Counted from the first letter of the stretch, positions 6,937-21,758 are shown. The stretch is DNA of 33,077 nt from Candidatus Rokuibacteriota bacterium (GCA_046712525.1 JBKKCN010000450.1:1-33077), one strand, 5' to 3'. Notes: a model not told the origin generated them from the letters alone. Numbers and translations are program-made.

Positions 6937-7380
6937 TCACCGTGCCGCCTGCACCCGAGGCGACGCGGTCGGCGTGCTCGGGTGCGACCGCAACCAGCCG
7001 TATCCATACGTGCCGACGAGGATGCCGGTGACCGTGAAGATGGCGACGAGCTTGCCCTCGCCGATCTGGACGAGTGAGGTGCCCGGACAGGCGCCGCTCA
7101 ACGCCCAGCCTGTGCCGAGCACCAGCCCGCCCCAGAGGGCACCCAGGCTCCACGGCTTGCGGCCGAGGTCGACCGCGCCGCCGGACACCGTCCGGTTGCC
7201 GGCGCGGCGCAGCAACCACAGGCCCAGAGCGGCCGTCGCGATCGCGGATCCGATGACGCCGAAGAGGTGGAGGTCGGCGAGGCGGAACATGCCGGCGATC
7301 GTGTCGTAGTCCGTCACCCGCCCACGCGACAGCACGAAGCCGAACAGACCGCCGAAGATCGTGAACACGTAGGGCCGCAT
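6937..7380 (-). CDS. YeeE/YedE family sulfur-transport membrane protein (second half-size unit)
   Basis: 147-aa track ORF with the motif GTGWALSGACPGTSLVQIGEG, typical of YeeE/YedE (DUF395). Confidence 0.8.
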   Translation of the reverse strand: MRPYVFTIFGGLFGFVLSRGRVTDYDTIAGMFRLADLHLFGVIGSAIATAALGLWLLRRAGNRTVSGGAVDLGRKPWSLGALWGGLVLGTGWALSGACPGTSLVQIGEGKLVAIFTVTGILVGTYGYGWLRSHPSTPTASPRVQAAR

Positions 7381-7384
7381 GGCG

Positions 7385-7882
7385 TTACCTCCCGAGAAAC
7401 GCGTAGAGCGTGTTGAACACTAAGACGCCGCCCAGCACGAAGCCGATCGTCGCCACCACACTCGATACGGCCCCCTGGGCGATGCCGACGATACTGTGGC
7501 CGCTCGGGCAGCCGCCCGCCCAGCGCGCGCCGGCGCCGATCAGCAGCCCTCCACCGAAGAGCAGGCCGGCCTTAACAGCGAGAGAACCGTGTACCAGCAC
7601 GTCGAGTTGGCCGTAGGCGAGGGTCGGAACGAACGTTCCGGCAAGAACTCCCGCCACCACACCGCCGAGTGGCAGGCCGCATATGAACCACAGGCGCCAG
7701 CGCTCCTGAAACTGTCCGGCCCCGAAGAACGAGAGGCGGGAGGTCGTCGCGCAGATCGCACCATATCCGGTCGAGACGCCGAGGCCTTTGCCGGTGAACC
7801 AGGCGAGCAGGCTCACCACAAGGCCGATGACCGGGCCGGCCACCCACCATGGCCACGCCGTGACGAAGATTGCTTCATACAT
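7385..7882 (-). CDS. YeeE/YedE family sulfur-transport membrane protein (first half-size unit)
   Basis: Track ORF 7385..7999, trimmed to MYEAIFV (ATG 7882), which is preceded by AAGGAG. Motif GAGARWAGGCPSGHSIVGIAQG. Confidence 0.8.
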   Translation of the reverse strand: MYEAIFVTAWPWWVAGPVIGLVVSLLAWFTGKGLGVSTGYGAICATTSRLSFFGAGQFQERWRLWFICGLPLGGVVAGVLAGTFVPTLAYGQLDVLVHGSLAVKAGLLFGGGLLIGAGARWAGGCPSGHSIVGIAQGAVSSVVATIGFVLGGVLVFNTLYAFLGR

Positions 7883-7896
7883 AATCGCTGGCTCCT

Positions 7897-8016
7897 TGGT
7901 TCGGCCGTGGCCTTCCAGGCCACGATGCCGCCGACGAGATCGAGCATCCCGGTCCGGCCCGCCTGCTGGAGCAGGCGCGCGGGTGGCCACGGTGGACATG
8001 CAAGGGCTGCGCGGAC
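7897..8016 (-). pseudogene. possible relic of a rhodanese-domain C-terminus
   Basis: A start-less reading frame, bounded upstream by TGA (8019..8017), translates ...ARLLQQAGRTGMLDLVGGIVAWKATAEP. This resembles the rhodanese C-terminal consensus a..L...Gf..v..L.GGi.aW...g.P. There is no active-site loop and no start codon. Confidence 0.3.
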
Positions 8017-8481: not shown

Positions 8482-8889
8482 TCAGCGCTCATAGCAGATG
8501 CCCTCCACGGTGATCCAGCCGCACACCGGTAACCCGTTCCGCGCTGGGTCTTCCGGCACATCCACCACGCCGCGGGCCAGTTCGCGGCCCGTGCCCGCGA
8601 CATGAACGACGAACGGATGGCGGCCGGGGCGATGAAAGACCGCCGAGATCCGTCCCGGGACGTTGACGACGTGGTGCTCTCCTTGGTCGCCGAGGAACTC
8701 GACGTGGATATCGCGGTTCGTCCGGTTCACGAAACGAATCGGCGCGTTGAGACTGACGTGAGCCACCGGCGGTCGCACACCGGTCGCCTCGACAACGATC
8801 TCGGCCACGTCGGCGGCGGATGTCGCGGCGGCAATCGCGAGTAACAACACAAGAGCGGCGCCGCACCAATGTATTGCAAGCCGCCTCAT
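8482..8889 (-). CDS. small secreted beta-rich protein with C-terminal C-x8-C (paralog 1 of 10534..10926)
   Basis: 135-aa track ORF with a signal peptide MRRLAIHWCGAALVLLLAIAAATSA. Shared pattern with the paralog: FVNR....H......G....HHV..V.G.I.A.FHR.GRH......L.G..DV.ED....LP.C...TV.G.C. Its ATG overlaps the protease stop (ATGA). Confidence 0.7.
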   Translation of the reverse strand: MRRLAIHWCGAALVLLLAIAAATSAADVAEIVVEATGVRPPVAHVSLNAPIRFVNRTNRDIHVEFLGDQGEHHVVNVPGRISAVFHRPGRHPFVVHVAGTGRELARGVVDVPEDPARNGLPVCGWITVEGICYER

Positions 8890-10025
8890 CGCTCTTCGCC
8901 CAACACAGCCCGCAGCACGAACGAGCGTCCGGAGCGATGAACCGTGACGTCGACGGTGGCGCCGGTCCGATGCCGCGCGAGCCGCTCATGGAGATCGTGG
9001 AGATTGCGGACGCTTTGTCCCTGAATGGCCGTGACGATATCACCCACGTCCATGCCAGCGATTGCGCCGGGCCCGGCCGCTTCGACCTTTGTCACGAGGG
9101 CCCCGCGCTCGACGGACAGGTTGTTGGCGTAGGCGATCTGGGGCGTGACGCTCACCGCCGACACGGCGAGCGACGGCCGAACGACCCGGCCGTTCGCGAT
9201 GAGCGCAGCAAGCACGGGCTTGACCGTGTCGGCCGCGATCGCGAAGCCGATGCCATGCGCCGACGCAATGATCGCTGTGTTGATGCCAATCACCTCGCCG
9301 GCGCGGTTCAGAAGCGGACCGCCGGAGTTCCCCGGATTGATGGCCGCGTCGGTCTGGATGAGATTGTGGAGAATCGGCAGCCCCGGCTCTTCCATCGAGC
9401 GCCCGAGCGCACTCACGACGCCGGCCGTCACGCTCGGCCCGCCCTCGATCCAGAGCGGACTGCCGATGGCGACGACCGTTTCCCCGACCCGAAGACGTCC
9501 TGAGGCCCCCAGACGCAGCACCGGCAGATCCGCTCCATCCACTTTCAACACGGCGAGATCCGTGAACGGATCCGCACCGACGAGGACGGCCTTGAACACT
9601 CGTTCGTCGGCGAGGGTGACCTTGATGTGCTCGGCGCCCTCCACGACGTGCCAGTTGGTCAGCACGAATCCGCGGCGATCGACGATGAACCCGGACCCGA
9701 GACCACGGGTGGGCACCGGCTGATTGAACTGATCGTGCTCGATCTGGCGGGTGGTGACGCTCACCGTCGCGGCAACGGTCCGCTGCACCATGGCCGGCAC
9801 GTCGTTGCCTGTGACGTGCGAGCGCGCCTGCACTGTCGCCACGCCGCCCATCAGCAGCACGCAGGCCAGAGGGCCGGCGAGTCGCACGCGTGTCACGAGC
9901 GGTGCTCGCCGCAAGCATTGTCGTCCAGTTCGTCGCAAGCCATTCCCACATGTCCTCCATCGCCGCGCGTTCATCGCGCGAGGCGTTGCTGCATCAGAGT
10001 CGTCGTCTCGCCTCGCGCGGTTCAC
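8886..10025 (-). CDS. trypsin-like serine protease, S1C (HtrA/DegP-like) with C-terminal PDZ (copy 1)
   Basis: 379-aa track ORF. Catalytic triad contexts are TNWHVVEG, DLAVLKV and GNSGGPL; the PDZ-like segment is GALVTKVEAAGPGAIAGMDVGDIVTAIQG. The ATG at 10025 overlaps the sigma-factor stop (ATGA). An alternative GTG start at 9896 (VTRVRLAGPLACVLLMGGVATVQA) would give a cleaner signal peptide. Confidence 0.85.
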   Translation of the reverse strand: MNRARRDDDSDAATPRAMNARRWRTCGNGLRRTGRQCLRRAPLVTRVRLAGPLACVLLMGGVATVQARSHVTGNDVPAMVQRTVAATVSVTTRQIEHDQFNQPVPTRGLGSGFIVDRRGFVLTNWHVVEGAEHIKVTLADERVFKAVLVGADPFTDLAVLKVDGADLPVLRLGASGRLRVGETVVAIGSPLWIEGGPSVTAGVVSALGRSMEEPGLPILHNLIQTDAAINPGNSGGPLLNRAGEVIGINTAIIASAHGIGFAIAADTVKPVLAALIANGRVVRPSLAVSAVSVTPQIAYANNLSVERGALVTKVEAAGPGAIAGMDVGDIVTAIQGQSVRNLHDLHERLARHRTGATVDVTVHRSGRSFVLRAVLGEER

Positions 10026-10531
10026 GCTGCACGCCCAGTGCCATAGCCGGCGGGGTACGGAGGACGGGCTAAAAGCGCGATTTGCAGTCTACGGCACCCA
10101 TCGATGCGCTCCGATCTCCAGGTGCTGGGGCGTTGCCGCCCCAGCGGGGGCATCGCTGTCGCACCGGAAAAACTCGTGCTCCCATTCCGCGGCTGTGGCT
10201 TGAGCAATGGAAGGACGTCGTAGAGACAGGCGCACGCGGCGGTGAACAGTTCGTCGTCCGGCGCCTGGTGTGTCGGCTCATCGCGAGTGAATTCCGCGAT
10301 CGTAGTAGCGGCGGTGGTCCTCCGCCGTAGCTGGTCAGTCACCAGATTCCTCAGTACCTGATAGAACCAGGCGACGAGGCTCTCGTCGCTCCTGAGGTCC
10401 TCCATCCGCCGGAGCGCGACGACCAAGCCATGTTGCAAAACGTCCTCCGCGTCGGCGCGGCCGAGCCGGCGCTCCAAGAACACCAGAAACCGTCGACGGC
10501 GCTCGAGCAAGACCTTGAGCCGTTCATCCAT
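10022..10531 (-). CDS. ECF-type sigma-70 family RNA polymerase sigma factor
   Basis: Track ORF 10022..10576, trimmed to MDERLKVLL (ATG 10531, 2 nt after the upstream stop). Region 2 is AEDVLQHGLVVALRR...LVAWFYQVLRNLVTDQLRRR. Region 4 is short and divergent (...LGRQRPSTWRSERIDGCRRLQIALL). Confidence 0.65.
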   Translation of the reverse strand: MDERLKVLLERRRRFLVFLERRLGRADAEDVLQHGLVVALRRMEDLRSDESLVAWFYQVLRNLVTDQLRRRTTAATTIAEFTRDEPTHQAPDDELFTAACACLYDVLPLLKPQPRNGSTSFSGATAMPPLGRQRPSTWRSERIDGCRRLQIALLARPPYPAGYGTGRAA

Positions 10532-10533
10532 GC

Positions 10534-10926
10534 TCACGGCTCGAGGCATGCGCCTATGACGGTGACCGTCGAGCACGTAGGCGGCAACGATCCCGACACC
10601 CTGTCCTCCGTGACGTCAATCACGCCTCGGAGGTGTCCACGGCCTGGATCGTCGAAGTCGACTATGTAGTCATGCCTCCCTAGTCGATGAAAGATCGCCC
10701 AGATTTCGCCCGACACGCGAAAGACGTGGTGTTGCTTGGCATCTCCCACCAGGTCGATGTGCACACTGCGACCCGAACGGTTGACGAAGACCACACGTTG
10801 GTCCGGGAGGACGCGTAGCACGGGCGGATCCACCGTCAGTGCGCTGATCACGACCTCCCTTTCGGCCGCCTCGGCCGCGGCCGAAACGAGGATGACGGAC
10901 AGCAGGATGACCATTGCCTGCGACAT
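10534..10926 (-). CDS. small secreted beta-rich protein with C-terminal C-x8-C (paralog 2)
   Basis: Track ORF 10534..10980, trimmed to MSQAMVILLSVILVSAAAEA (ATG 10926, TGATG overlap with the protease stop). Shares the pattern described for 8482..8889. Confidence 0.7.
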   Translation of the reverse strand: MSQAMVILLSVILVSAAAEAAEREVVISALTVDPPVLRVLPDQRVVFVNRSGRSVHIDLVGDAKQHHVFRVSGEIWAIFHRLGRHDYIVDFDDPGRGHLRGVIDVTEDRVSGSLPPTCSTVTVIGACLEP

Positions 10927-11939
10927 CAGCGAAACTCTGTCAGGGTGACTCGTACGGCAAGAGGCTCTCCGTCTCGCCAAACGGCCAGCGCCACCGTCTG
11001 ACCAACCCTGTGTGTTGAGAGCAGATCGTGGAAGTGGTGGAGATCGGTGACGGGCCGTCCCTCGACGGCGGTGATGACATCGCCGCTCTTGAGGCCGGCG
11101 GACTCCGCAGGCCCATCCGTCTCGGTCCGGATGATCAACGCTCCTCGCTCCATCGGCAGGTCGTTGGCATACGCGACCTGCGGGGTCACGCTTACGGCAT
11201 AGACGCCGATAGATGGCCGGACGACCCGACCGGTTGCGATCAGCGCGCGAAGCACGGGCCGGGCAGTGACCGCCGACACCGCAAAGCCGATGCCGTGGGC
11301 GGACGGGATGAGCGCCGTGTTGACGCCCACCACGCGTCCGTCCAGGTCGAGGAGCGGACCGCCCGAGTTACCCGGGTTGATGGCCGCATCAGTCTGGATG
11401 AGGTTGTGGAGGACGGGCAGGCCTTCCTCCTCCATGGAACGCCCAAGGGCACTCACGATTCCTACCGTGACCGTTGGACCGCCCTCTATCCAGAGTGGGT
11501 TGCCGATCGCGATCACAGTCTCGCCGACCTCGAGCCGGCGCGACTGAGCCAACGCCAGCGTTGGCAAGCGGGCGCCCTGGATCTTGAGCACGGCCAGCTC
11601 CGTGAACCGGTCACTTCCAACGAAGGTCGCCACGAAGCGCCGCCCGTCGGCGAGGGCGACCTTGATCTCGTTGGCGCCCTCGACGACGTGGAGATTCGTG
11701 AGGATGTAGCCGTCCGGGTCGACGATGAATCCAGAACCCAGACCGCGAGTGCGCACGGATTGATTGAACTGGTCTTGCTCGATCCGGCGCGTCGTGATGC
11801 TCACGACCGCGGGCATCGCCTTGCGGACGACGGTCGGGATGACGCGGCGCCCGGTCAAGTCCGAGCGTGCCGCCGCCGGCGGTGGTATCAATGCGACGGC
11901 AACTGCCAGCGCCACAGCCACTTTTCGAAGTGTCGGCAT
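10926..11939 (-). CDS. trypsin-like serine protease, S1C (HtrA/DegP-like) with C-terminal PDZ (copy 2)
   Basis: 337-aa track ORF with a signal peptide MPTLRKVAVALAVAVALIPPPAAA. Triad contexts are TNLHVVEG, ELAVLKI and GNSGGPL. Roughly two-thirds identical by eye to copy 1. Confidence 0.85.
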   Translation of the reverse strand: MPTLRKVAVALAVAVALIPPPAAARSDLTGRRVIPTVVRKAMPAVVSITTRRIEQDQFNQSVRTRGLGSGFIVDPDGYILTNLHVVEGANEIKVALADGRRFVATFVGSDRFTELAVLKIQGARLPTLALAQSRRLEVGETVIAIGNPLWIEGGPTVTVGIVSALGRSMEEEGLPVLHNLIQTDAAINPGNSGGPLLDLDGRVVGVNTALIPSAHGIGFAVSAVTARPVLRALIATGRVVRPSIGVYAVSVTPQVAYANDLPMERGALIIRTETDGPAESAGLKSGDVITAVEGRPVTDLHHFHDLLSTHRVGQTVALAVWRDGEPLAVRVTLTEFR

Positions 11940-11951
11940 GGACCTTTCCCT

Positions 11952-12374
11952 TCACTTGATCCCGTTTGCAGCTTGGACCTCGCGGATGTATCGCGTGATG
12001 GCGGTGACCTCATCTGGTCGCACTTCGGGCTGCGGCGGCATGTCGCCCGCCCGCCAGTGATGAGCCCGGACGCCGCGCTGGACGGCGAGACTGAACGCGA
12101 CGTCGGCGTGATGGGCGGGGCGGTAGATCGGGTGGACAAGCGGCGGCCCGGCGCCGCCGCCTCCTCCGTGCGGGCCGTGGCAGTGTGCGCAACGGCGGTC
12201 ATAGGCCTCGCGACCGGACTGCGCAACCGAAGAGAGGGCGGGAACGGCGACTGGCATGTCGGCAGGCACGCCAGGTCCGCGGCCATCCCACAGCCCCCAG
12301 CCGGCATAGCCCACTATCGTGAAAACGGTAAAGAGGGAGGCTGGAATCATCCATGCCTTCGAACGCCTACTCAC
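11952..12374 (-). CDS. membrane-anchored monoheme c-type cytochrome
   Basis: 140-aa track ORF with an N-terminal TM helix (MIPASLFTVFTIVGYAGWGLW) and one heme motif CAHCH. A distal Met candidate sits in HWRAGDMPP. Confidence 0.75.
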   Translation of the reverse strand: MSRRSKAWMIPASLFTVFTIVGYAGWGLWDGRGPGVPADMPVAVPALSSVAQSGREAYDRRCAHCHGPHGGGGGAGPPLVHPIYRPAHHADVAFSLAVQRGVRAHHWRAGDMPPQPEVRPDEVTAITRYIREVQAANGIK

Positions 12375-13026
12375 TATCCGCCTTCACGGCATCCCGGGGC
12401 GTGCGCGCAAGCTCGACGTACGACGCCGCCAGGTACATTCCAAGAAGCTTGCGGCGGTCTTCGTGCGAAAGCGTGCCCGGCCATTCGTCACGTCCCCATC
12501 GGTCTGCGACGTGGGCGCGCACCGCCGGCCACGATGTGAGCCGGCGGCGGTCGGCCCACGTCGTCCAGGCCCACAGCGCGCGTTTCATGGCCCGGCGATC
12601 AAGCAGGTCGGGACGCCGATTGCGAATCCACGGGGGTAGCCCTTGGAGGAAATCTACGCCGAAACGTCTGCCGTTCCTTCCCATGAATCGCAACAGGAAA
12701 TCTGAGAGCAGCGTTGCGTCCGCCGCCGGCAGCAGGGCCGCCACAGCAACAGGGCCTCGCCGCGGCATGCTGGCGCAGACCAAGCCACCGCTGTCTCCGA
12801 TCCAGAGCATGCCGAGCGCGGCGGCCCCCCCCGGGGGCGACGTCCGTACGCCGAAGTCGAACAGCGGCTCTATCCGCTCGGTGGCCAGGCGCCGGGCGGC
12901 GGCGGCGCCGAGAGCGTCCGGAAGATCGATCGGCGCGTGAGGGCGAAAGATCGCCCCGTCGCTGGCTGTCGGTACCGGCCGCCCGAACGCCGCGACAATG
13001 TGACGAAAGCGAGACTCCAGGCTCAT
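12367..13026 (-). CDS. hypothetical protein, no signal peptide (219 aa)
   Basis: Track ORF, Trp/Arg-rich, with no motif I recognise. The case for it being coding rests on its length, its strand and its ATGA coupling with the upstream small ORF. Confidence 0.5.
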   Translation of the reverse strand: MSLESRFRHIVAAFGRPVPTASDGAIFRPHAPIDLPDALGAAAARRLATERIEPLFDFGVRTSPPGGAAALGMLWIGDSGGLVCASMPRRGPVAVAALLPAADATLLSDFLLRFMGRNGRRFGVDFLQGLPPWIRNRRPDLLDRRAMKRALWAWTTWADRRRLTSWPAVRAHVADRWGRDEWPGTLSHEDRRKLLGMYLAASYVELARTPRDAVKADSE

Positions 13027-13164
13027 CGTTCGCTCCTCGATGACGACTCTTTCTTCGGTTCGTGGTGGGCCCGGGCGCGGTGATACGGGCCCGAGGACGC
13101 GCCGCCTGTGACATCAGCACGCTGGCACCTCGCGACGCGGCGCCAGTCGCCGACGAAGGATCGA

Positions 13165-13518
13165 TCAGCCGCGGGGAGGAGCGCGTGGGGCGTGCGGCCG
13201 AACGGACAGCGGGGCAACGGCGATCACGATAGGCGGCGCATCCGGCGTCCCACAATGCATCACGACCGTCGTATCCGGGATGGACGGCGTCACTGCGGCA
13301 GATATACGGTCGGGAAACGGTAGGCGCTCGGCGCCGGACTTGATGCTGACAGGCTCGACGTCGCAGGGGTCTGTCTGGGCGCCAGCATCAGCCGGGTGCG
13401 CCTCGACGCCGACGCACGACCCGAGCGCAACCGCGAGCAGGCTCAGGCCGACACACAGCAGACTCCCATGTCCGCTGAGGACCCGAAGGGGAAACCAGCC
13501 CGCCCGTTCAAAACCCAA
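13165..13518 (-). CDS. putative lipoprotein (117 aa); may continue into ORF 13023..13217 across a frame break
   Basis: Track ORF with a lipobox-like signal SLLCVGLSLLAVALGSC. The overlapping ORF 13023..13217 ends in an ATGA overlap with the next gene. The two frames would join if the C4 run (13211..13214) lost one nt. Confidence 0.4.
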   Translation of the reverse strand: MGFERAGWFPLRVLSGHGSLLCVGLSLLAVALGSCVGVEAHPADAGAQTDPCDVEPVSIKSGAERLPFPDRISAAVTPSIPDTTVVMHCGTPDAPPIVIAVAPLSVRPHAPRAPPRG

Positions 13519-14281
13519 ACGAGAAACCTGTCGTCAGGAAGAACGTGGCCCGATCGCTGGGGCCCACGAACTCGGTGCCAACGCCGACATCGAACACGAG
13601 ACGGCGGGTCAACTGATGGCGAAAGCCTGCTTCCACCCCGACCACGTTCGACTCGCCCCTACGAGTGGCTTGCTCGATGAAGATGTCACCGATGAGCGTG
13701 GTGCGCGTGTACTGTGGAGCGCCGATGGGATAGCTGGCTCCAAGAACGAACTGATAGCGTCCGTCGCGCTCGCCGCGGTCAGTGCCCGTCAGGAATTCGT
13801 AGGCCGCGTTGAAGTGGAGCGACAGCCGATCGAAAGACTTGGTGACCAGCCCCTTCACCTCGACGTCGACCCCCGCTGAATCGACGCCGGTCGGGACATT
13901 GAGGGTCAGCTTGACGCCAAAGGCCGGCACCGTCAGCGTCTCCTGATTGAAATTGTAGAGGCCGCTCACCTGCAGGTCACCGGACTTTGTCTGGTCCTCT
14001 AACTCGTGCGGCGCCGTGGAGAGCGTGGTTCCGATACCGAGCTGCAGGTTTGGCAAGGCGCCGTAGAGAATCTCGACGGGGAACGTTCCCCGGTCGCTGC
14101 CACGTCGCTGTAGCGTGAATCCGCCGCCCGCCTCGAGAGTCCATTCGCCCGCCGCGATCGGATAGGGGTCCTCCAGGCGAAGGGGACGATTCTCGTCGAG
14201 GTTCTTGTGGTCGATGGCGGCGGCCGGGAGGACGGAACCGGCCAGAAGCGCAAGCACCACGGCGGTGGCTCTCACGGACAT
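13508..14281 (-). CDS. outer-membrane beta-barrel protein (possibly 'transporter'/MetA-pathway-like family)
   Basis: Track ORF trimmed to MSVRATAVVLALLAGSVLPAAA (ATG 14281), which is preceded by GAGGTG. It has alternating hydrophobic beta-strand patterns and a C-terminal ...TTGFSFGF ending in Phe (OMP beta-signal). Confidence 0.7.
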   Translation of the reverse strand: MSVRATAVVLALLAGSVLPAAAIDHKNLDENRPLRLEDPYPIAAGEWTLEAGGGFTLQRRGSDRGTFPVEILYGALPNLQLGIGTTLSTAPHELEDQTKSGDLQVSGLYNFNQETLTVPAFGVKLTLNVPTGVDSAGVDVEVKGLVTKSFDRLSLHFNAAYEFLTGTDRGERDGRYQFVLGASYPIGAPQYTRTTLIGDIFIEQATRRGESNVVGVEAGFRHQLTRRLVFDVGVGTEFVGPSDRATFFLTTGFSFGF

Positions 14282-14289
14282 GACACACC

Positions 14290-15951
14290 TCAATGCTTGT
14301 GCTCGTCAGGCGGTTTGGCTGGATCGCCCGGCGGCTGGCTGCGCGGAGACGGCCGGCCGTCCAACACATCCTTTGCCGACGGCGGTCGCGGTCCCATGTT
14401 CATCATGCCGGCGGCCATGCCCTGTCCCATGCCACCTTGGCCGCCCGACCCGTGGGCCATCGGCATTGCGTGATAGCTCACGTAGAGATCCTCAGCGCCG
14501 TGGTTGCGGTGCAGATAGATCGGCAGGATTCGGAGCACTGCCGCGCGCTTTGCTTCCACGGTCGGATAGAGATCGGGCCGGCTCAGGACGTCGTCGATGT
14601 TGTCATGCGCCATGTGGAGGTTGTCGAAGATGGCCGCCGCCTCCGGGAAGCGCTTCGTGAACTCCGGTGCGCCCTCCGGGAGCATCGGCATGAACTGCCA
14701 CTCGATGGGCGGCCGCCGGAGATAACCGTGATAGTGCTCGATGATCTTCGCCATCAGCTCGCGCTGACGTACGGCCGGGCCCATGAGCTGGACGTCGTAC
14801 GTCGCCGCTTGCAGCCAGTGGTAGGCCCAGATCTGCGTGTTGAACGTGCGGAACGTGTTGCGGAACGCCTTGGACTCGGGGAAGCTCCAGAGCTTGCCAT
14901 GATGGTCGAGCCGGTGCGAGGTGATGGCCTCGGGCTTCTCCAGGTAGTTGGCGAGGAGCTTCCGGTACACCGCCTCCTTGTCCGGGACCTTGTCGGCGGC
15001 GAACAGATCGTAGAGGCTGCGGTGGAAGGTGTGGCCCCAGTTGAACGCCCGGTGCGCTTCCCAGACCATGCGCGTGAAGCGGGGCGCCACCTGCTCTTCA
15101 TCCGGAGGCACCGACGGTGAGCTGAAGATGAAGTCGAGGATCTCGAGCCGCGCCGTCTCGACGCGCTGCAGGTCCTGCGTCCTGAGCAGCGTTTCGGCAA
15201 GATGCGCGTGCCCGAAGTCGATGCCGTTGAATTCGCGGTAAAGCTGAGGCAGCTCCCGCGGGATCGCCCAGTTCCAGCGGCCGCGTGGCTGCCAGCGATG
15301 ATCGCGCGTGACCCACTGGCTCGTCCGGACTTCGGGAAGGACGGTCACCTGCTGCGAAGCGCTGCCCGCCGCGTGTTGCTGGGCGACGTCATGGGCGCCC
15401 GTCGCGGGACCGCGCGGCTGCATTTCCGGGTGCTCGGCGAGGACGTGCGCTCCCGTGTGGCCGGACTGGGTGTGCTGGTAGGCAATGACGGCCCAGCGAT
15501 CTTCCACCGGGAGCTGATCCTTGAACGCCGGCATCACCGAGCCGCGCGCCAGGAACGGCTCGACGACCGCACCGCCCTCGCTGACCCGCCAGAACCAGTA
15601 CGCGTCGGTCATGCCCGCCACCATCCGCTTGTCCGTGAAGTCCGGCGGCTTCAGACGCATCCCCGTTGCGGCCGGTACGTGGCCGTCACCGCTGTCGCCG
15701 TGACAGGCGACACATTTCTCCGCGTAGATCTGCTTCCCGCGCGCGGTCATCCGTGTGTCGGTCCAGAGGCCGGGCGGCGGCTTGACGCCGACGTACTGGG
15801 CTGGCACTGGGATCGATCCATGCTCATGGTGGTCGCTGCCTTGTCGGGGGGTCTGGTGTTGAGCGGCAGCGCCGCGCGAGACAGAAGTCACCTCCGATGC
15901 GATTCCGCCGAGGATGAGGATCGCGAGCGCAATCCGAAGACGCGACTTCAT
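14290..15951 (-). CDS. secreted monoheme cytochrome c fused to a ~400-aa His-rich domain of unknown function and a Met/Gly-rich tail
   Basis: 553-aa track ORF with a signal peptide MKSRLRIALAILILGGIASEV and the heme motif CVACHGDSGDGH. Its cytochrome domain is paralogous to domain 1 of 16989..18242 (shared ...DAYWFWRVSEGG...VEDRWAVIAYQHT). It continues with FGHAHLAETLL, FNWGHTFH, WAYHWLQ, FDNLHMAHDNIDD and a tail HAMPMAHGSGGQGGMGQGMAAGMMNMG. Confidence 0.8.
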   Translation of the reverse strand: MKSRLRIALAILILGGIASEVTSVSRGAAAQHQTPRQGSDHHEHGSIPVPAQYVGVKPPPGLWTDTRMTARGKQIYAEKCVACHGDSGDGHVPAATGMRLKPPDFTDKRMVAGMTDAYWFWRVSEGGAVVEPFLARGSVMPAFKDQLPVEDRWAVIAYQHTQSGHTGAHVLAEHPEMQPRGPATGAHDVAQQHAAGSASQQVTVLPEVRTSQWVTRDHRWQPRGRWNWAIPRELPQLYREFNGIDFGHAHLAETLLRTQDLQRVETARLEILDFIFSSPSVPPDEEQVAPRFTRMVWEAHRAFNWGHTFHRSLYDLFAADKVPDKEAVYRKLLANYLEKPEAITSHRLDHHGKLWSFPESKAFRNTFRTFNTQIWAYHWLQAATYDVQLMGPAVRQRELMAKIIEHYHGYLRRPPIEWQFMPMLPEGAPEFTKRFPEAAAIFDNLHMAHDNIDDVLSRPDLYPTVEAKRAAVLRILPIYLHRNHGAEDLYVSYHAMPMAHGSGGQGGMGQGMAAGMMNMGPRPPSAKDVLDGRPSPRSQPPGDPAKPPDEHKH

Positions 15952-15956
15952 ACGGG

Positions 15957-16076
15957 CTACCGCAAAAGCTCCGCGACAACGACGGTGAGGAGAACATGTA
16001 CAGCGTGACGACTCATGGCGTGGTCCTTCCCGCCAGCCTTCAGGCCGCTTTCGTGAACGTCATGCCCGTGCGACAT
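15957..16076 (-). CDS. possible 39-aa His-rich micro-protein with hydrophobic C-terminus
   Basis: Below the track cut-off. Own translation MSHGHDVHESGLKAGGKDHAMSRHAVHVLLTVVVAELLR. AAGAGGA lies 7 nt upstream of the ATG. It fills the gap between two cytochrome genes, and its stop is 5 nt before ATG 15951. Confidence 0.35.
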   Translation of the reverse strand: MSHGHDVHESGLKAGGKDHAMSRHAVHVLLTVVVAELLR

Positions 16077-16088
16077 ATCCAGATCCTC

Positions 16089-16613
16089 TTAGTGGCCTTT
16101 ATGCTGTCCCGCAGCACCACCCGCCGGCGGCTTCAGCACTGTCAAGAACGCGACGAGGTCGATCAGCTCCTGAACGTTCAAGGAGTCATTGAAAGACGGC
16201 ATCTTGGAGGTGCCGTCGGTGGCTTGGTAGCCCTTGCCCTTCTCGATCACGGCATTGGGGTTGATGATCGCCTCTACGAAGTACTGCGCCTCGTGCAACG
16301 GCCCCATCGTCGACAGTTCCGGTCCGACCTTGCCCTTGTCGGACGGCGCCGGGAACTTCTCTCCCTTCACTTCGTGGCAGCTGTAGCACTCCAGCTTTGC
16401 GAAGACCTGCCTGCCCTTGGCGGCGTCACCTTTTGGCCAGGTGAGCTTCCAGCCCTCGGGCGTCCCGTGGTCGCCGTGCGGCTGAGGCCGCGCCGCGGGT
16501 GCTTGAGCGGGACGGCCGGGCTTGGCCGGCTGCTGCCCCGTGGCAGCGGCGACTGACGAGGCAAGCAACACGCCGGCGAGCGCGAGCGCCCGCCGGCGAA
16601 AGCCCGGCGTCAT
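16089..16613 (-). CDS. periplasmic monoheme c-type cytochrome
   Basis: 174-aa track ORF with a signal peptide MTPGFRRRALALAGVLLASSVAAA and the heme motif CYSCHEV. A distal Met candidate sits in GTSKMPSF. Confidence 0.8.
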   Translation of the reverse strand: MTPGFRRRALALAGVLLASSVAAATGQQPAKPGRPAQAPAARPQPHGDHGTPEGWKLTWPKGDAAKGRQVFAKLECYSCHEVKGEKFPAPSDKGKVGPELSTMGPLHEAQYFVEAIINPNAVIEKGKGYQATDGTSKMPSFNDSLNVQELIDLVAFLTVLKPPAGGAAGQHKGH

Positions 16614-16960
16614 CGTTCCATCACGACCTTCACCAGGTCGGCCACTTCCTTGTCGCCCTCGTGCTTAGTGGCGACGCTGACGATCCATCCCGGCTTCAGA
16701 TCGGTCAGCGCCACGGTCTGCTCCACGAAGCCCGTCTTGCCCGGCTCGGTGGACCGAGTGAACCGGACGACCTTGGCGCCCGGCTTGAGGTGGACGACGA
16801 CCTGACGTGTCTTTCCCTTGGCCGTGGCGTCGATCGTCACCGTCTGCGCCGCCGGGTCCACTGCCTTCACCGTCCCTGAGATCGGTGCTTCATCGGCGAC
16901 GGCGATGCCGCTCACGACGGTCGCCGCCAGGATCATGATCATTGTCATCGCACGAATCAC
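16610..16960 (-). CDS. small periplasmic beta-rich protein (116 aa), unknown function
   Basis: Track ORF 16610..17110, trimmed to GTG 16960 (V)IRAMTMIMILAATVVSGIAVA, which is preceded by GGAGGA at 6 nt. Its stop overlaps the next ATG (ATGA). Confidence 0.6.
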   Translation of the reverse strand: MIRAMTMIMILAATVVSGIAVADEAPISGTVKAVDPAAQTVTIDATAKGKTRQVVVHLKPGAKVVRFTRSTEPGKTGFVEQTVALTDLKPGWIVSVATKHEGDKEVADLVKVVMER

Positions 16961-16988
16961 GTTGAATCCTCCGTTTCTCAGAATCCCT

Positions 16989-18242
16989 CTATCGACCAGT
17001 CTCTGTCGTCCGCGGCCCGTTGCTCGACAGCGACAGCACGTAGAAAACAAGGTCCCATGTCTGGTCCGGCTCAAGCGAGTCGGCATAGGAGGGCATCGGC
17101 GTGCCAGCAAAACCCGTGACTAACGTCCGGTAGACGTCCTCCGGCCGATCGCCATTCTTGAACCGCCGGGGGTTCCTGAGGTCCGGGGCGGCAATCGGCA
17201 GCTCTCGGCTATCCTTCAGGGTCGGCGCTGAAGGCCCATCGCCCTTCCCCGTCGCGCCGTGGCAAGCCAGGCACTCGGCGTCGGCGTAGAGTTGCTTGCC
17301 CCGGGCGATTCGCTCGTCCGTCAGTTGGGGCCGGGGCGGAATCTCGACGACCTTCACCGGGCCCCGCTCCCAGAACTCTTTGTTCAGGCTCTTGACGTAC
17401 TCGAGGAGCTCCAGGCGCTGCTCTTCAGGCATGTGCCGAAAGCTCGGCATGATGCGGTAGCCGCGTAAGCCGATCGTGAGCGGGCCTCCGGTCGCCCGCA
17501 CTCCTTCCGTCAGCGTCCGGAAGAGGTCGGCGGTCGTCGGAAGCTGACCCGAGGGCGTCGACCGGAACTTGAAGTCCTTGGTCGTGAGGTCGCGCGGCTG
17601 TGGAGATCGGCGCGGCGACAGCGTCGCGCCCACGGAGCCATCGCCCTTGCCCGCCGCTCCGTGACAGGCGACGCACGCCATGGCGAAGATGTCGTGCCCC
17701 ACCGCGACGCTTTGCGGATGCTCCCAGGGGACATGCGGGCCGTCGTGCCCGGAGAATGTGTGCTGGTAGGCCATGACGGCCCACCGGTCTTCGACCGACA
17801 GCGAGTTCTTCCAGGGGGGCATCGCCGAACCCTTGGACTTGAAGGGCTCCGTCTGCCCGCCCTCGCTGATGCGCCAGAACCAGTAGTTGTCCCGCATCTC
17901 GGCGACACCGGCCTTGTCGCGGAAGTCCGACGGCTTCAGAGGCAGCGCCACGCCCGCCGGCCCTTTGCCGTCGCCGGTATCACCGTGACAGACGGCGCAA
18001 CTGGTGGTGTAGATCTCCTTACCGCGCGCGATCATCTTTGCGTCGGTCCAGACGCTGGCCGGCACGTGCGCGTCGGCATAGGGCAGCGGCGCCGGGACGT
18101 GCGCATGTCCGCCCTTGTCCTCCTCGTGGGGCTCGCCGTTGCCGGTAGGATCGGCTTCGATGACTGGCGGGTTGCCAACCCAGAACGACACCGTCAGCAT
18201 GACGGCCGTGATACCGAGGATCGACCAGTGCCTGGCTCTCAT
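16989..18242 (-). CDS. triheme c-type cytochrome
   Basis: 417-aa track ORF with an N-terminal signal/anchor (ILGITAVMLTVSFWV) and three heme motifs: CAVCH, CVACH and CLACH. Confidence 0.85.
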   Translation of the reverse strand: MRARHWSILGITAVMLTVSFWVGNPPVIEADPTGNGEPHEEDKGGHAHVPAPLPYADAHVPASVWTDAKMIARGKEIYTTSCAVCHGDTGDGKGPAGVALPLKPSDFRDKAGVAEMRDNYWFWRISEGGQTEPFKSKGSAMPPWKNSLSVEDRWAVMAYQHTFSGHDGPHVPWEHPQSVAVGHDIFAMACVACHGAAGKGDGSVGATLSPRRSPQPRDLTTKDFKFRSTPSGQLPTTADLFRTLTEGVRATGGPLTIGLRGYRIMPSFRHMPEEQRLELLEYVKSLNKEFWERGPVKVVEIPPRPQLTDERIARGKQLYADAECLACHGATGKGDGPSAPTLKDSRELPIAAPDLRNPRRFKNGDRPEDVYRTLVTGFAGTPMPSYADSLEPDQTWDLVFYVLSLSSNGPRTTETGR

Positions 18243-18254
18243 CCCGTTCTCTCC

Positions 18255-19694
18255 TCAGAAGTCCCAGTCAATGCCGACGATGACCTGATTGCGGTAGCTC
18301 CGCAGCGCGTTGTCCTCGTGAAACTTCCTGAGATTCACACTGTCCCGGACGAAGAAGGCGATGTTCTGCCACGGGTAGTACCGAACCTGGGCGGTGAACA
18401 CCGTGCCGTCGAGCTTCTCGTCCTTCAGGCCGCCCGCCCAGAGCTGGTCGAAGCGGCTGGAGACCAGCACCTTCTCGTGCACGAGGTAGTCGGCCTGCAG
18501 CGTCAGGCCCATGGCCGTGCGGTCGAACTCGCCGCGCAGGTCGCCCGGCAACCCGTAGATGCGGTCCCAGATGAGCGCGCCGTACACGTCGAGACCTTTC
18601 CAGCGTGCGTTCGCCGCGATTCCGTAACGTAGGCGGTCGAGGCGTTTGTCCCCGGCCTCCTCATGGTCCTCAGGGTTGGGGCCGCGCACGACGCCGAACC
18701 CCCAGTTGACCAGTGCCGAGACGTTGAACGTCAGCTCCCTGCGGTCGAGGATGTCGTAGCGCAGCATTGCGTACGTATTGAACCCCTCGTTCTCGCGGAG
18801 GAATCCGACCTGGGCAAGGATGACGTCGTTGAACATCGCGTGGAAGTCCGCACCGGGCGTCCCCGTCGTGTTGTACATGACCTGGTCGGTGACGAGCTGC
18901 GGTTCATGCTCTCGCCGATTCTTGAACAAGCCGAAGAACTTGGAGGCGAACGCATAGGGGACGATGGGGAGGCGATGGACCTCGGACTTGTCCTCGCCGG
19001 GCTCCTTCTCGAATTCGAGCTCGGTGTCCAGGATCAGCTGACGATTTGTGGCGTACGAGAAGTTCGTGCTCGGATCGACCTTCCCGGCCATGAGCATGGG
19101 GCCGTGCATGTAGTTTCCGCCGTGCCGGCCGACCATCGTCTGCCCGCCCATCTCCATGGTCGGAGCGCCGACGAGACCGAAGAGCCAGCCCAGATTGGCC
19201 ATGAAGAAGGCCTCTTTGCCGAGACCGAACTTGTGGCCTCGGTTGTAGAACCCGCGGTCGCGATCGAACTCGGTCGCGTTCGGCTCGTACTCGAACTCCA
19301 CGTAGAAGCTGAAGTTGGGCGTGATCGCTCGCGAGACGAAGAACTCGACCTCGTGCGGCGGCTCGAACTTCACCTCGGTCTCCCGCGGAGACTCGCTGTA
19401 TTCGAAGAATCCGCCGACGATACGGAGGGCAAGGCTGTCGATCGCCGTCTTTGCAGGCCCGTCTTCCTTGAGGCTGCCGACGAGGCCGTCCGGCCGGGAG
19501 GAGCCGGGGATCTGAAAGCCCATCATGTGAAACTGTTCGCCGAAGCGGTTCAGGCGAGGCGGCCGGGTGTGGCAAGCGTTGCATTGCATGTCGTATTGCC
19601 GGGCAAACGCAGGAATCGCATGCGAAGGACTGACCTGCACGTACCCGATCAGGACTCCGACAACGGCGATGCCGAAAAGAACGCGTAGGACCAT
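18255..19694 (-). CDS. fused monoheme cytochrome c - outer-membrane beta-barrel (Cyc2-like porin-cytochrome)
   Basis: 479-aa track ORF. A signal peptide MVLRVLFGIAVVGVLIGYVQVSPSHA is followed immediately by IPAFARQYDMQCNACHTRPPRLNRFGEQF (single CxxCH). The rest is ~430 aa of amphipathic beta-strand pattern ending ...VIVGIDWDF (terminal Phe). GAGGGAGAGGG lies upstream of the ATG. Confidence 0.7.
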   Translation of the reverse strand: MVLRVLFGIAVVGVLIGYVQVSPSHAIPAFARQYDMQCNACHTRPPRLNRFGEQFHMMGFQIPGSSRPDGLVGSLKEDGPAKTAIDSLALRIVGGFFEYSESPRETEVKFEPPHEVEFFVSRAITPNFSFYVEFEYEPNATEFDRDRGFYNRGHKFGLGKEAFFMANLGWLFGLVGAPTMEMGGQTMVGRHGGNYMHGPMLMAGKVDPSTNFSYATNRQLILDTELEFEKEPGEDKSEVHRLPIVPYAFASKFFGLFKNRREHEPQLVTDQVMYNTTGTPGADFHAMFNDVILAQVGFLRENEGFNTYAMLRYDILDRRELTFNVSALVNWGFGVVRGPNPEDHEEAGDKRLDRLRYGIAANARWKGLDVYGALIWDRIYGLPGDLRGEFDRTAMGLTLQADYLVHEKVLVSSRFDQLWAGGLKDEKLDGTVFTAQVRYYPWQNIAFFVRDSVNLRKFHEDNALRSYRNQVIVGIDWDF

Positions 19695-19769: not shown

Positions 19770-20144
19770 TCAGATCAGGAAGGAGGCGTGCAACAAGAAC
19801 AGTGGGGCACCGGTATGGTCCCGGCTCGATCGAGCGGCGGCGGCCAGCGTGGCCATCGGGGTGGAGCACGGCACAAGCGACATGGGCTGCGCCGCGACCG
19901 CAATGGTGGCGGCCGGAGCCGGCACCGTCGGCGCTGTGGGGGCGGTCGTCGCATCGCACGATGCGACGTGCGAGGCTTCAGGACCGCTGCCTGACGGAGC
20001 ATGCGATTCGGTCGACGTGGTAAAGGGACTATGACCCGAGAACGGCAGCGGAACGATATGTCCGAGGAGACCCATGAGCGCGAGCACGAACACCATCGAG
20101 CGCAGCGGACCAAGGGGCATGAAGGATGTCGCTCTCGCGCTCAT
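19770..20144 (-). CDS. small membrane-anchored His/Cys protein (124 aa), paralog A
   Basis: Track ORF trimmed to MSARATS (ATG 20144), the point where similarity to paralog B begins. Shared blocks are LRSM, GHIVPLPFS.H.PF, TESH.PS, ASHVASCDATT, AAQP.SLVPC..PMA and PLFLLHASFLI (C-terminus). Confidence 0.6.
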   Translation of the reverse strand: MSARATSFMPLGPLRSMVFVLALMGLLGHIVPLPFSGHSPFTTSTESHAPSGSGPEASHVASCDATTAPTAPTVPAPAATIAVAAQPMSLVPCSTPMATLAAAARSSRDHTGAPLFLLHASFLI

Positions 20145-20150
20145 GCGGTG

Positions 20151-20180
20151 ACGATACACGCCGTAAATCGCCATTGTCAA
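20151..20180 (-). promoter_or_regulatory. sigma-70-like promoter candidate (TTGACA-18-TATCGT) 6 nt upstream of ATG 20144
   Basis: The minus strand reads TTGACAatggcgatttacggcgtgTATCGTcaccgcATG. There is no SD, and the geometry would give a leaderless mRNA. Confidence 0.3.
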
Positions 20181-20246: not shown

Positions 20247-21044
20247 TCACAGGACCCGCGACGTGTACATCCTCCACGCCCGGATGGGACCGGGACGGGT
20301 GGCGTACACGCGCGACGCCCAGAAGCCGCCGCGCGTCCTCCACATGCCGCCGCGGGCGCGCTGGAACAGCATGACGCTCGGCTCGGAGGGATCGTTGGGG
20401 TCCCACATCGTGAACTCGATGCCCTCGGGCGTGTCGCGGTACGCGTAGGCGATCGTAGTGTGGTTCAGCTCCGGCTTCGGCCAGTTCGAGATCAGCAGCT
20501 GCACGAGGCGGCCCTCGCGAATCTCGTGCGCGATCTCGCTCGCGACCTGTTCCTGATGACCGTCGGGCAGCGGCGCCCCTACCCGCCAGTTGGTCCAGTG
20601 GATGAACGACCAGAAGCGCGCGGTCATCCCGCCCAGCCCCACCTTGACGGCCTTCTCCTCGCCTGCCGTGAACTCGCGCAAGGAGCCGTAGCCGGGGATG
20701 ACGACGCGCTGCTCGGCCGGCAGCGCCGGATCGTACGGGCGGCGGGCGGCGACCTCCTCCACCCGCTTGACGTACTCGTCGAAGGTGAGGCGCGGCGCGA
20801 GGGGGTCGAAGCGCGCGAACTGGTGGAACTGCCGCACGGCGCGCGCGAGCACGAAGCAATAGTTGGCGTAGTCGGCATTCGGCGTTCGCACACGGATCTG
20901 ATTCGGGAACGTAAACGTGTCCGTGCTGAACGAGAAGTCGGTGACGGCGGCGGCCGTGTCGAGGACGTCGGGGGACGGGAGCAGGGGAGCGGTGGCGCAC
21001 GCCACGGTCAGCAGCGCGACGCCGACAAGGATCAGACCCTTCAC
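20247..21044 (-). CDS. lipoprotein of unknown function with a Cys...His...Asp arrangement (possible papain/transglutaminase-like hydrolase)
   Basis: 265-aa track ORF with a GTG start and a lipobox MKGLILVGVALLTVAC. Candidate triad contexts are ANYCFVLARAV, ELNHTTIAYAY and TMWDPNDP. Confidence 0.65.
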   Translation of the reverse strand: MKGLILVGVALLTVACATAPLLPSPDVLDTAAAVTDFSFSTDTFTFPNQIRVRTPNADYANYCFVLARAVRQFHQFARFDPLAPRLTFDEYVKRVEEVAARRPYDPALPAEQRVVIPGYGSLREFTAGEEKAVKVGLGGMTARFWSFIHWTNWRVGAPLPDGHQEQVASEIAHEIREGRLVQLLISNWPKPELNHTTIAYAYRDTPEGIEFTMWDPNDPSEPSVMLFQRARGGMWRTRGGFWASRVYATRPGPIRAWRMYTSRVL

Positions 21045-21280: not shown

Positions 21281-21758
21281 CCCTCTCCCTCTCGTTGGCG
21301 ACATAGGCTGCGGCCTCGGAGCGAACGGAACGTGACTGAGAAGAGGGGGTCGAATCAGATCAGGAAGGACGCGTGCAGCAAGAACAGCGGGACACCGGTC
21401 TGGTCCCGTATCGATCGAACAGCGAGGGCCAGGGCCGCCATCGGGCGGGCACATGGCACAAGTGATATGGGCTGCGCCGCGAGCGCGGTGGTGACGCCGG
21501 GGAGCGTGAGGCTCGCTGTGCGGGACGTTGTCGCATCACACGATGCGACGTGGGAGGCTGCGGCGCCCCCGTCCGACGGCCCGTGCGATTCGGTCAATGT
21601 GACAAAGGGAGTATGAACGGAGAACGGCAGCGGGACGATATGGCCGAAGAAAACCAGGATGGTGAGCGCCAACAGCATCGAGCGCAGGAGACCTCCACGC
21701 ACGCAGGATGCAGATGTGGCGCTCATGCGGCCGACACTACACGCCGTACATCTGTCAA
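21281..21758. repeat. copy B of the diverged ~480-bp direct repeat (partner 19696..20180)
   Basis: See copy A. The 26-nt left end is identical, while the coding part has diverged (~60% aa identity by eye). Confidence 0.8.
21355..21726 (-). CDS. small membrane-anchored His/Cys protein (123 aa), paralog B
   Basis: Track ORF trimmed to MSATSAS (ATG 21726). Conserved blocks are as in paralog A. It starts 28 nt after the ATPase stop. Confidence 0.6.
   Translation of the reverse strand: MSATSASCVRGGLLRSMLLALTILVFFGHIVPLPFSVHTPFVTLTESHGPSDGGAAASHVASCDATTSRTASLTLPGVTTALAAQPISLVPCARPMAALALAVRSIRDQTGVPLFLLHASFLI

Follow-up and report, generated by a model that had tools for sequence, protein, structure and literature searches.

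A contig assigned to Candidatus Rokuibacteriota (GCA_046712525.1, JBKKCN010000450.1) was analysed for a cluster of c-type cytochrome genes that starts with a gene for a putative fused cytochrome-porin of the Cyc2 family. The contig, here called the window, comprises 33,077 bp with about 66% G+C and is the entire NCBI record; protein and genome-scan matches identified metagenome-assembled genomes (MAGs) of Candidatus Rokuibacteriota as its closest named relatives. Nine genuine open reading frames (ORFs) with the third-position G+C (GC3) pattern of coding sequence are located on the minus strand between positions 11952 and 19694 (Table 1), and five of the nine encode c-type cytochromes. Together they contain seven CxxCH motifs, the number claimed in an earlier note on this DNA: a single CNACH at residue 38 of the 479-aa protein, CAVCH, CVACH and CLACH at residues 82, 190 and 324 of the 417-aa protein, CYSCH at residue 76 of the 174-aa protein, CVACH at residue 80 of the 553-aa protein, and CAHCH at residue 62 of the 140-aa protein. 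Six of these motifs belong to proteins with significant Pfam cytochrome c matches (E 1e-9 to 1e-34) and are therefore not chance occurrences. The CNACH motif, for which Pfam and NCBIfam gave no match, was counted as genuine because the Cyc2 family motif surrounds it.

Cyc2 proteins have been defined by a signal peptide, a single CXXCH followed by PXL, a length of at least 365 aa and a 16-strand porin, and the sequence AXPXFAR[Q/K][T/Y] directly before CXXCH was said to be unique to them (Keffer et al. 2021, PMC8406198). The 479-aa protein reads AIPAFARQY-DMQ-CNACH-TRP-PRL and thus has both the upstream and the PXL motif. By inspection it begins with a signal peptide, MVLRVLFGIAVVGVLIGYVQVSPSHA followed by IPAF, and it contains only the one CNACH, near the N-terminus; its length exceeds 365 aa. 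Residues P46, R47 and L48 were invariant among the aligned relatives. An exhaustive search of 1.84 billion representatives with the 479-aa protein returned 1,500 relatives, and the same motif with the same spacing was present in each of the 57 distant full-length relatives examined. Sequence searches of Pfam, NCBIfam and PDB gave no match to the protein, which is expected because these libraries carry no curated Cyc2 model.

A first AlphaFold2 model, computed from a shallow alignment of close relatives, was poor (predicted local distance difference test, pLDDT, 54) and was superseded by a run on a diverse alignment, which gave a confident model (pLDDT 89.5; predicted template modelling score 0.87) with about 16 long strands in residues 88-478. 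The best Foldseek matches of this model were the 16-strand porins OmpK35, OmpF and PhoE, with E values of about 1e-10 and target-normalised template modelling scores of 0.60-0.67. Judged by its sequence and its predicted fold, the 479-aa protein is a Cyc2-family fused cytochrome-porin and agrees with every part of the definition that could be tested, so that motif, length and fold all bear out the Cyc2-like porin-cytochrome suggested beforehand. The gene itself thus belongs to a known family; Cyc2 in Rokubacteria was already noted in passing by FeGenie, which flagged this group for cyc2 or sulfocyanin homologues and also called Cyc2 in Nitrospirota MAGs from the Oslofjord tunnel that are 37-40% identical to the protein of the window. 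Close relatives are common in the protein collection (487 were scored, with 70-92% identity among the 120 matches listed). To most other Cyc2 representatives the clade of the window is less than 35% identical, and only in the N-terminus.

Table 1. Positions of the cluster genes, of segments within them and of the two adjoining genes in the window.
Feature	Position	Strand	Evidence
cyc2, fused monohaem cytochrome c and predicted 16-strand porin, 479 aa	18255..19694	-	Cyc2 motif, predicted fold
Cyc2 haem-binding signature, residues 26-48	19551..19619	-	Residues invariant in 40 relatives; matches published motif
Met/His-rich insertion segment, residues 168-205	19080..19193	-	Alignment of relatives
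Periplasmic trihaem c-type cytochrome, 417 aa	16989..18242	-	Three Pfam cytochrome c domains
Small secreted beta-rich protein, 112 aa	16610..16948	-	Synteny among Rokubacteria modules
Soluble monohaem cytochrome c, 174 aa	16089..16613	-	Pfam Cytochrom_C, E 7.6e-12
Monohaem cytochrome c fused to His-rich domain of about 360 aa, 553 aa	14290..15951	-	Pfam cytochrome domain
Met-rich tail of 553-aa protein	14392..14475	-	Direct sequence reading
Phenol_MetA_deg outer-membrane beta-barrel, 261 aa, likely start 14281	13508..14293	-	Pfam
Small putative lipoprotein, 117 aa, ..ALGSC..	13165..13518	-	ORF call
219-aa protein without signal peptide	12367..13026	-	ORF call; no family match
Inner-membrane-anchored monohaem cytochrome c, 140 aa	11952..12374	-	N-terminal hydrophobic helix and Pfam cytochrome c
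Small His/Cys leader protein	19770..20174 (readable up to 20231)	-	Precedes cyc2 in related loci
HtrA/DegP-type periplasmic serine protease	10926..11939	-	Trypsin_2 and PDZ domains

Between strands 4 and 5 the Cyc2 protein of the window has an insertion of about 25 aa, TMEMGGQTMVGRHGGNYMHGPMLMAGK; the residues 168-205 that hold it read ...PTMEMGGQTMVGRHGGNYMHGPMLMAGK. Positions M180, M182, M187, H191, H197 and M202 were invariant in 40 relatives, at a mean column identity of 76%. The insertion was found in the Rokubacteria, Troglogloeales-type Nitrospirota and Binatia clades and is enlarged in Binatia, with 10-13 Met and 6-8 His, while the remaining relatives have a 26-aa turn with 0-2 Met at this place. 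According to DSSP, the turns on the side of the termini in the predicted model comprise 2-3 residues each, except for the 168-194 turn with the insertion, and the long loop between strands 5 and 6 (207-278) resembles the porin constriction loop L3. Given this strand order and standard porin topology, the insertion would face the periplasm, close to the N-terminal haem domain. Met-rich motifs suit the soft ions Cu(I) and Ag(I) and not Fe(II), and Met/His motifs of this type characterise periplasmic proteins that bind Cu(I)/Ag(I), among them CopA/PcoA, CopB and CusF. A second Met-rich stretch lies in the tail of the 553-aa protein, which reads YHAMPMAHGSGGQGGMGQGMAAGMMNMG; this protein terminates in GMGQGMAAGMMNMG. 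Both stretches are present as quoted in the earlier note.

A scan of one genome per GTDB species, seeded with alignment A3 since alignment A2 was too divergent, yielded 565 Cyc2 relatives. Those with 64-81% identity came from Rokubacteria and a few bins labelled otherwise. A group with 37-40% identity over the full length belonged to Candidatus Troglogloeales, the order of Manganitrophus, and to other Nitrospirota, and was followed by more distant relatives from Binatia, Nitrospira and Gammaproteobacteria. Nearly all full-length relatives have a cytochrome gene after cyc2, and the product of this gene is homologous to domains 2 and 3 of the trihaem cytochrome; the dihaem protein of Nitrospirota is orthologous to these domains (38% identity, E 1e-45). 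The first domain of the trihaem protein is an extra one, paralogous to the haem domain found in the 553-aa protein. Homology and gene order indicate that Cyc2 and the downstream cytochrome are a conserved pair from Rokubacteria to Nitrospirota. The earlier note proposed a check of the co-occurrence of the whole gene set; the extra cytochromes are absent from five of the related loci that have the core (numbered L003, L007, L009, L012 and L088).

The N-termini of the partner cytochromes differ between the clades. The mature N-terminus of the trihaem protein is conserved and rich in His (..GGHAHVPAPLPYADAHVP..), and the Rokubacteria partners begin with a conserved GGHAHVPAP..DAHVP. Nitrospirota partners of Cyc2 proteins with the insertion mostly have N-terminal repeats of the QEMDHSxM type, with up to 21 Met in the 95 residues ahead of the first haem motif. 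Partner cytochromes of the insertion-free clade have neither His-rich nor MDHSxM N-termini. No account of the Met-rich insertion or of partner cytochromes with MDHSxM tails was found in the incomplete library of literature that was searched. In locus L002, on a 1.5-Mb contig, the cytochrome genes after cyc2 (11449-14649) are broken into several short ORFs, probably by frameshift errors of the assembly and not by decay. Locus L032 on a Nitrospirales chromosome contains, within 10 kb, two cyc2-dihaem pairs in opposite orientation (8881-10308, plus strand, and 16482-18709, minus strand) with sensor kinase genes between them; neither cyc2 copy has the Met-rich insertion, and no copper genes are nearby.

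Identification of the trihaem protein as cytochrome 579 was considered and rejected, as it scored 73.7 bits with the NCBIfam equivalog model NF033864, for which the cut-off is 280. All three of its domains gave sub-threshold matches to this model, and the 553-aa protein reached 33.5 bits, also below the cut-off. Cytochrome 579 of Leptospirillum is the proposed acceptor of electrons from the Cyc2 homologue Cyt572, and the resemblance speaks for oxidation of Fe(II), whereby Cyc2 would draw electrons from dissolved Fe2+ at the outer membrane and the cytochromes would feed a terminal oxidase, which would serve to gain energy or to prevent Fe(II) from entering the cell. The full Cyc2 signature and the fold match point in the same direction, as do the Fe(II)-oxidising activity of the tested Cyc2 proteins, the FeGenie calls in Rokubacteria and the position of one marine relative near a gene for an FTR1 iron permease. 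Copper genes would then be found nearby because toxic Cu(I) arises when Fe(II) reduces Cu(II), or only because both share a metal-stress island. Against this stand the low identity of the clade to most Cyc2 representatives, confined to the N-terminus, and the view of Keffer et al. that function is uncertain outside Cluster 1 (PMC8406198).

The neighbourhoods of the related cyc2 genes contained genes of copper and heavy-metal export. Six Rokubacteria loci showed the gene order CusA/CzcA resistance-nodulation-division (RND) pump, YtkA, outer-membrane efflux protein (OEP), membrane fusion protein (MFP), MerR, leader gene and cyc2, with the pump above its NCBIfam cut-off. A P1B ATPase of the CPC (CopA) type adjoins the module in L002, L005 and L055; the ATPases of L002 and L005 possess the CPC, YN and MxxSS signatures of Cu(I) exporters, and the gene of L055 is a 77% match at the end of the contig. 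In L009 and L085-87 the adjoining ATPase is of the CPH type with a His-rich N-terminus (CopB type), and the neighbours in L001 are CzcA, P-II, CzcD and DUF305. The more distant gammaproteobacterial locus L057, which has no insertion, carries genes for a multicopper oxidase, CopB, MerR and a copper ATPase beside cyc2. Metal-export neighbours recur across three phyla in varying gene orders. Among loci of at least 10 kb, a copper ATPase, RND pump or MerR gene was a neighbour in 13 of the 24 with the insertion and in 2 of the 34 without it (Fisher p = 5e-5, a value that is not corrected for phylogeny and is an upper bound on significance). No literature linking Cyc2 with cue, cop or cus genes was found in the library, which was incomplete.

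Three of the Nitrospirota loci, L016 (3612-9687), L019 (5301-11190) and L022 (8517-16730), carry the leader gene, cyc2 and the dihaem gene next to genes for MerR and a CopA with YHS/HMBD domains, and the N-termini of their dihaem proteins are extremely rich in Met. A membrane-anchored cytochrome c is encoded between MerR and CopA in L016 and L022. In L023 the CopA-type ATPase is present and MerR is absent. L016, L019 and L022 belong to the Oslofjord-tunnel MAGs, of the order SBBL01/Troglogloeales, for whose Cyc2 a function as an oxidase of iron or manganese has been discussed in the literature. Oxidation of Mn(II), as proposed for Cyc2 of Troglogloeales and Manganitrophus, is in keeping with the fact that the nearest relatives outside Rokubacteria come from Troglogloeales-type Nitrospirota and with the proposals published for those organisms. 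We nevertheless consider it very improbable for the window. The proposals rest on presence and expression only, cyc2 lies next to MerR and CopA genes in the three MAG loci, Met-rich sites are ill-suited to Mn(II), and the window lacks the dodecahaem complex PCC_1, which is considered specific to Mn oxidisers.

Neither an oxidase, a bc-type complex, rusticyanin nor carbon-fixation genes were found next to cyc2 in the related loci. The absence of an oxidase and rusticyanin from the window, noted earlier, was confirmed for that part of its ORFs that was scanned, which gave no corresponding Pfam or NCBIfam match. Cu-oxidase domains were likewise not detected among the scanned ORFs of the window and of the Rokubacteria and Nitrospirota loci, and only L057 has one. 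The lack of accompanying respiratory and autotrophic genes, the Met-rich motifs with their preference for soft metals, and the copper-gene neighbours that track the insertion all argue against Fe(II) oxidation as the function of the clade, and we regard it as unlikely, though as the main rival to the copper reading given below.

A role in copper or wider metal stress, and not in iron lithotrophy, is tentatively preferred for this Cyc2 branch and is given not quite an even chance; its most likely activity would be the oxidation of Cu(I), with electrons passing inward. This reading was preferred because no respiratory or autotrophic genes accompany the clade, while copper and heavy-metal export genes do, and because the sequence features specific to the clade are rich in Met and His. 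The HtrA protease gene that starts 12 nt past the last cytochrome gene also counts in its favour. The genes make a plausible envelope-spanning cytochrome wire. Cyc2, a monohaem cytochrome fused to a 16-strand outer-membrane porin, would take up the electrons and pass them to its conserved periplasmic partner, here the trihaem cytochrome. From there they would reach the soluble monohaem cytochrome of 174 aa and then the inner-membrane-anchored monohaem cytochrome, which would hand them to a terminal oxidase or reductase encoded elsewhere. The gene order fits the proposed layout of cytochromes from the outer membrane through the periplasm to the inner membrane. Cu(I) would be bound on the Met/His-rich segments and oxidised at the haem to the less toxic Cu(II), and the pore may let the oxidised ion out. 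The role would equal that of the multicopper oxidases CueO and PcoA, which work with O2, but would use haems and the respiratory chain. The His/Cys leader protein and the small secreted beta-rich protein are further members of the module.

A more specific form of this proposal is that the insertion-bearing branch as a whole, in Rokubacteria, Manganitrophus-order Nitrospirota and Binatia, is a haem-based cuprous oxidase in an outer-membrane pore. Cu(I) pumped to the periplasm by CopA or CopB would then be captured by the segments of Cyc2 and its partner. We hold this form to be rather doubtful. With respect to the two interpretations offered in the earlier note, that of an Fe(II)-oxidation-like module stood as far as the Cyc2 family and the cytochrome chain are concerned, whereas a dedicated energy module like that of rus is not the leading reading. 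The copper-linked system, which had been put second, is the better supported of the two through the Met/His features and the export-gene neighbours.

Several observations weigh against a copper function. The window contains no P1B ATPase, heavy-metal efflux RND pump or MerR gene, and both of its ATPases are of the P2 type; L003, L004 and several insertion-bearing Nitrospirota loci also have no metal genes. All three biochemically tested members of the Cyc2 family oxidise Fe(II), and for related copies in Nitrospirota a role as Mn(II) oxidases has been proposed. A haem-c cuprous oxidase was not found in the literature searched. We know of no such enzyme. Unrelated cargo accumulates in metal-resistance islands, and both this and the shared ancestry of related loci inflate the association statistic. 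The MerR genes carry Cys at the position typical of divalent-metal sensors, and for this reason the metal may not be copper.

As the direction of a haem wire cannot be read from sequence, transfer of electrons outward to an extracellular or periplasmic acceptor, for instance in the reduction of Cu(II), Fe(III) or Hg, was also considered. MerB and MerR genes are located near the module in L002, and the 112-aa protein weakly resembles ExtJ of the Geobacter porin-cytochrome cluster. This resemblance remained below the cut-off (18.8 versus 52.5 bits), and the assignment as ExtJ was rejected. Reduction of Cu(II) to Cu(I) would raise toxicity beside copper-export genes, and known outward conduits use multihaem cytochromes with at least 5-10 haems and larger porins, so that outward transfer has very little probability. 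The 112-aa protein was also tried as CusF (PF11604) and rejected, with 19.8 bits against a cut-off of 27 over only 20 residues and no Met or His at the matching positions. It was found only in modules of the Rokubacteria clade (L001-L012, L055 and L085-88).

The remaining cluster proteins recurred to different extents. The 174-aa cytochrome, with a His-containing N-terminus (PHGDHGTP) and C-terminus, was present in L001, L002, L005, L011 and L055. The 140-aa anchored cytochrome recurred in L001, L002 and L055, while L005 gave a short partial match; it was only weakly similar to the anchored cytochrome encoded between MerR and CopA in Nitrospirota. Relatives of the 117-aa lipoprotein, for which there was no family match, were found in L001, L055 and, weakly, L002; the 219-aa protein recurred only in L001, at 76% identity.

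The 261-aa outer-membrane protein passed the Phenol_MetA_deg model (PF13557) with 33.6 bits at a cut-off of 22. The C-terminal domain of about 360 aa in the 553-aa protein belongs to a large conserved family with 60-89% identity, whose members either stand alone or carry a fused cytochrome c, and shows conserved His pairs (FGHAHL, WxHTFHR and NLHMxHDN). It had no Pfam match and no sequence relative in PDB, even with a profile. The domain spans 14290-15450 (minus strand) in the window, 7001-8882 in L084 and 13665-15547 in L085. A gene for a MetA-type outer-membrane protein always comes after it, whether Cyc2 is nearby or not, and sometimes a copper ATPase gene follows the pair. The pairing with the outer-membrane protein is kept in L001, L084, L085-87 and the P0336 locus. 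By this distribution the 553-aa protein and the outer-membrane protein form a separable module inserted in the cluster, and the cluster is not an indivisible unit.

The occurrence of this pair without Cyc2 suggests that the cluster might be a mosaic without common function, in which genes were juxtaposed by shuffling of metal islands. It would also account for the five loci with the core and no extra cytochromes and for transposase genes near the modules of L001 and L085. We judge such a mosaic to be improbable, since the genes are joined by overlapping or 12-nt junctions, L001, L085-87 and L055 combine the same modules anew in differing order, and Met/His-rich features are common to separate proteins.

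The spacing of the genes was looser than the gaps of 0-28 nt claimed previously, amounting from cyc2 downward to about 12, 40, -4, 137, -4, -11, 138 and -8 nt. A scan for promoters and terminators gave nothing above chance. The genes that had been listed were recovered on the minus strand at their positions by ORF calls and GC3, with the exception of a His-rich micro-ORF of 39 aa (15957-16076, minus strand) in the 137-nt gap. L001, the syntenic locus closest to the window, has only a 40-nt gap at this place, and a small ORF in L085 is unrelated. The micro-ORF was dropped because it is not conserved in syntenic loci, and it is probably not a gene.

The leader gene is located directly upstream of cyc2 in the Rokubacteria loci, and a diverged form ending in ..LYQLHAxxLI occurs in Nitrospirota. 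As it precedes cyc2 in nearly all related loci, it was assigned to the module. Its product starts with a hydrophobic segment, contains conserved His and Cys residues and has an almost invariant C-terminus, PLFLLHASFLI; it had no Pfam or NCBIfam match, and a search with it found only close relatives, all named 'hypothetical'. A paralogue of the leader gene at 21355-21771 (minus strand) lies ahead of a gene for a putative lipoprotein of 265 aa (20247-21044), which had no family match.

At its other side the cluster does not end at 11952, as had been assumed, for the HtrA protease gene begins 12 nt past the last cytochrome gene and is probably co-transcribed with the cluster. Synteny with L001 and L055 extends to the HtrA gene and to a small gene for a cupredoxin-like protein. 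The region 8482-11939 (minus strand) contains genes for HtrA, a cupredoxin-like protein without the Cys ligand, an ORF with sigma-70 region 2 only, a second HtrA and a weakly cupredoxin-like ORF. These five genes are on the same strand with short or overlapping junctions and seem to make up an envelope-stress unit that runs on from the cluster. Further along are a split YeeE/YedE-type sulfur-transport protein in two adjacent ORFs (6937-7999, minus strand) and a short ORF whose only match is to the C-terminal half of cytochrome b561 (Ni_hydr_CYTB; 5831-6166, minus strand). Upstream of the leader gene are tandem genes for P2-type ATPases of the Ca/Mg/H-like and not the heavy-metal kind (21755-24295 and 25487-28156, minus strand), and beyond them genes for a sigma-54 activator (28522-29922, plus strand) and a universal stress protein.

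The protein of the window shares with the Cyc2 family (Cyc2 of Acidithiobacillus ferrooxidans, Cyc2PV-1 of Mariprofundus and Cyt572 of Leptospirillum) the signal peptide, the motifs, a length of about 480 aa, the predicted 16-strand porin and a c-type cytochrome gene directly downstream. It differs from most members in the insertion of about 25 aa, and its clade adjoins copper and heavy-metal export genes instead of oxidase or rusticyanin genes. As in the chain from Cyt572 through Cyt579 to the terminal oxidase in Leptospirillum, an outer-membrane protein of the Cyc2 type would pass electrons to a soluble periplasmic c-type cytochrome, although the partner in the window has three haem domains and falls below the cytochrome 579 cut-off. 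The organism of the window is moreover a neutrophilic one from soil, and a metal-export context is undescribed for Leptospirillum. In the rus operon of A. ferrooxidans (cyc2-cyc1-orf-coxBACD-rus) cyc2 is likewise the first gene, with one for a multihaem periplasmic cytochrome behind it. Among the ORFs scanned in the window none matched cox or rusticyanin, and the cluster adds monohaem cytochromes, a second outer-membrane protein and the HtrA protease.

The CueR-CopA-CueO and Pco/Cop systems resemble the related loci in that MerR/CueR-type regulators, P1B copper ATPases and Cus-type RND pumps are among the neighbours of the latter. They also resemble them in periplasmic and outer-membrane proteins with Met-rich, MDHxxM-like segments and in the proposed conversion of Cu(I) to Cu(II). 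This likeness is one of functional analogy only: the redox centres of the window proteins are haems, no multicopper oxidase (MCO) is encoded in the scanned ORFs, and electrons would go to the respiratory chain and not directly to O2. The MtrAB, MtoAB and PioAB systems likewise combine an outer-membrane barrel with c-type cytochromes for metal redox reactions across the envelope, but have a separate decahaem cytochrome in a 26-strand barrel, whereas the window has one haem fused to a predicted 16-strand porin.

Cyc2 is the main marker by which iron oxidisers are called in metagenomes, and it now also serves for proposed manganese oxidisers. Soils harbour Rokubacteria in abundance, and if this branch belongs to the defence against copper or metal stress, many environmental calls of iron-oxidation potential would need a caveat; Cyc2 matches should not all be read as iron oxidation. 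Two conserved families without assigned function, the PLFLLHAxxLI leader and the 360-aa His-rich domain with its MetA-type outer-membrane protein, travel with copper genes. If the branch is indeed a cuprous oxidase, FeGenie-type Cyc2 matches in soil and sediment genomes would have been misread as iron or manganese oxidation, and these bacteria would possess an MCO-independent, haem-based copper detoxification that may work with little or no O2.

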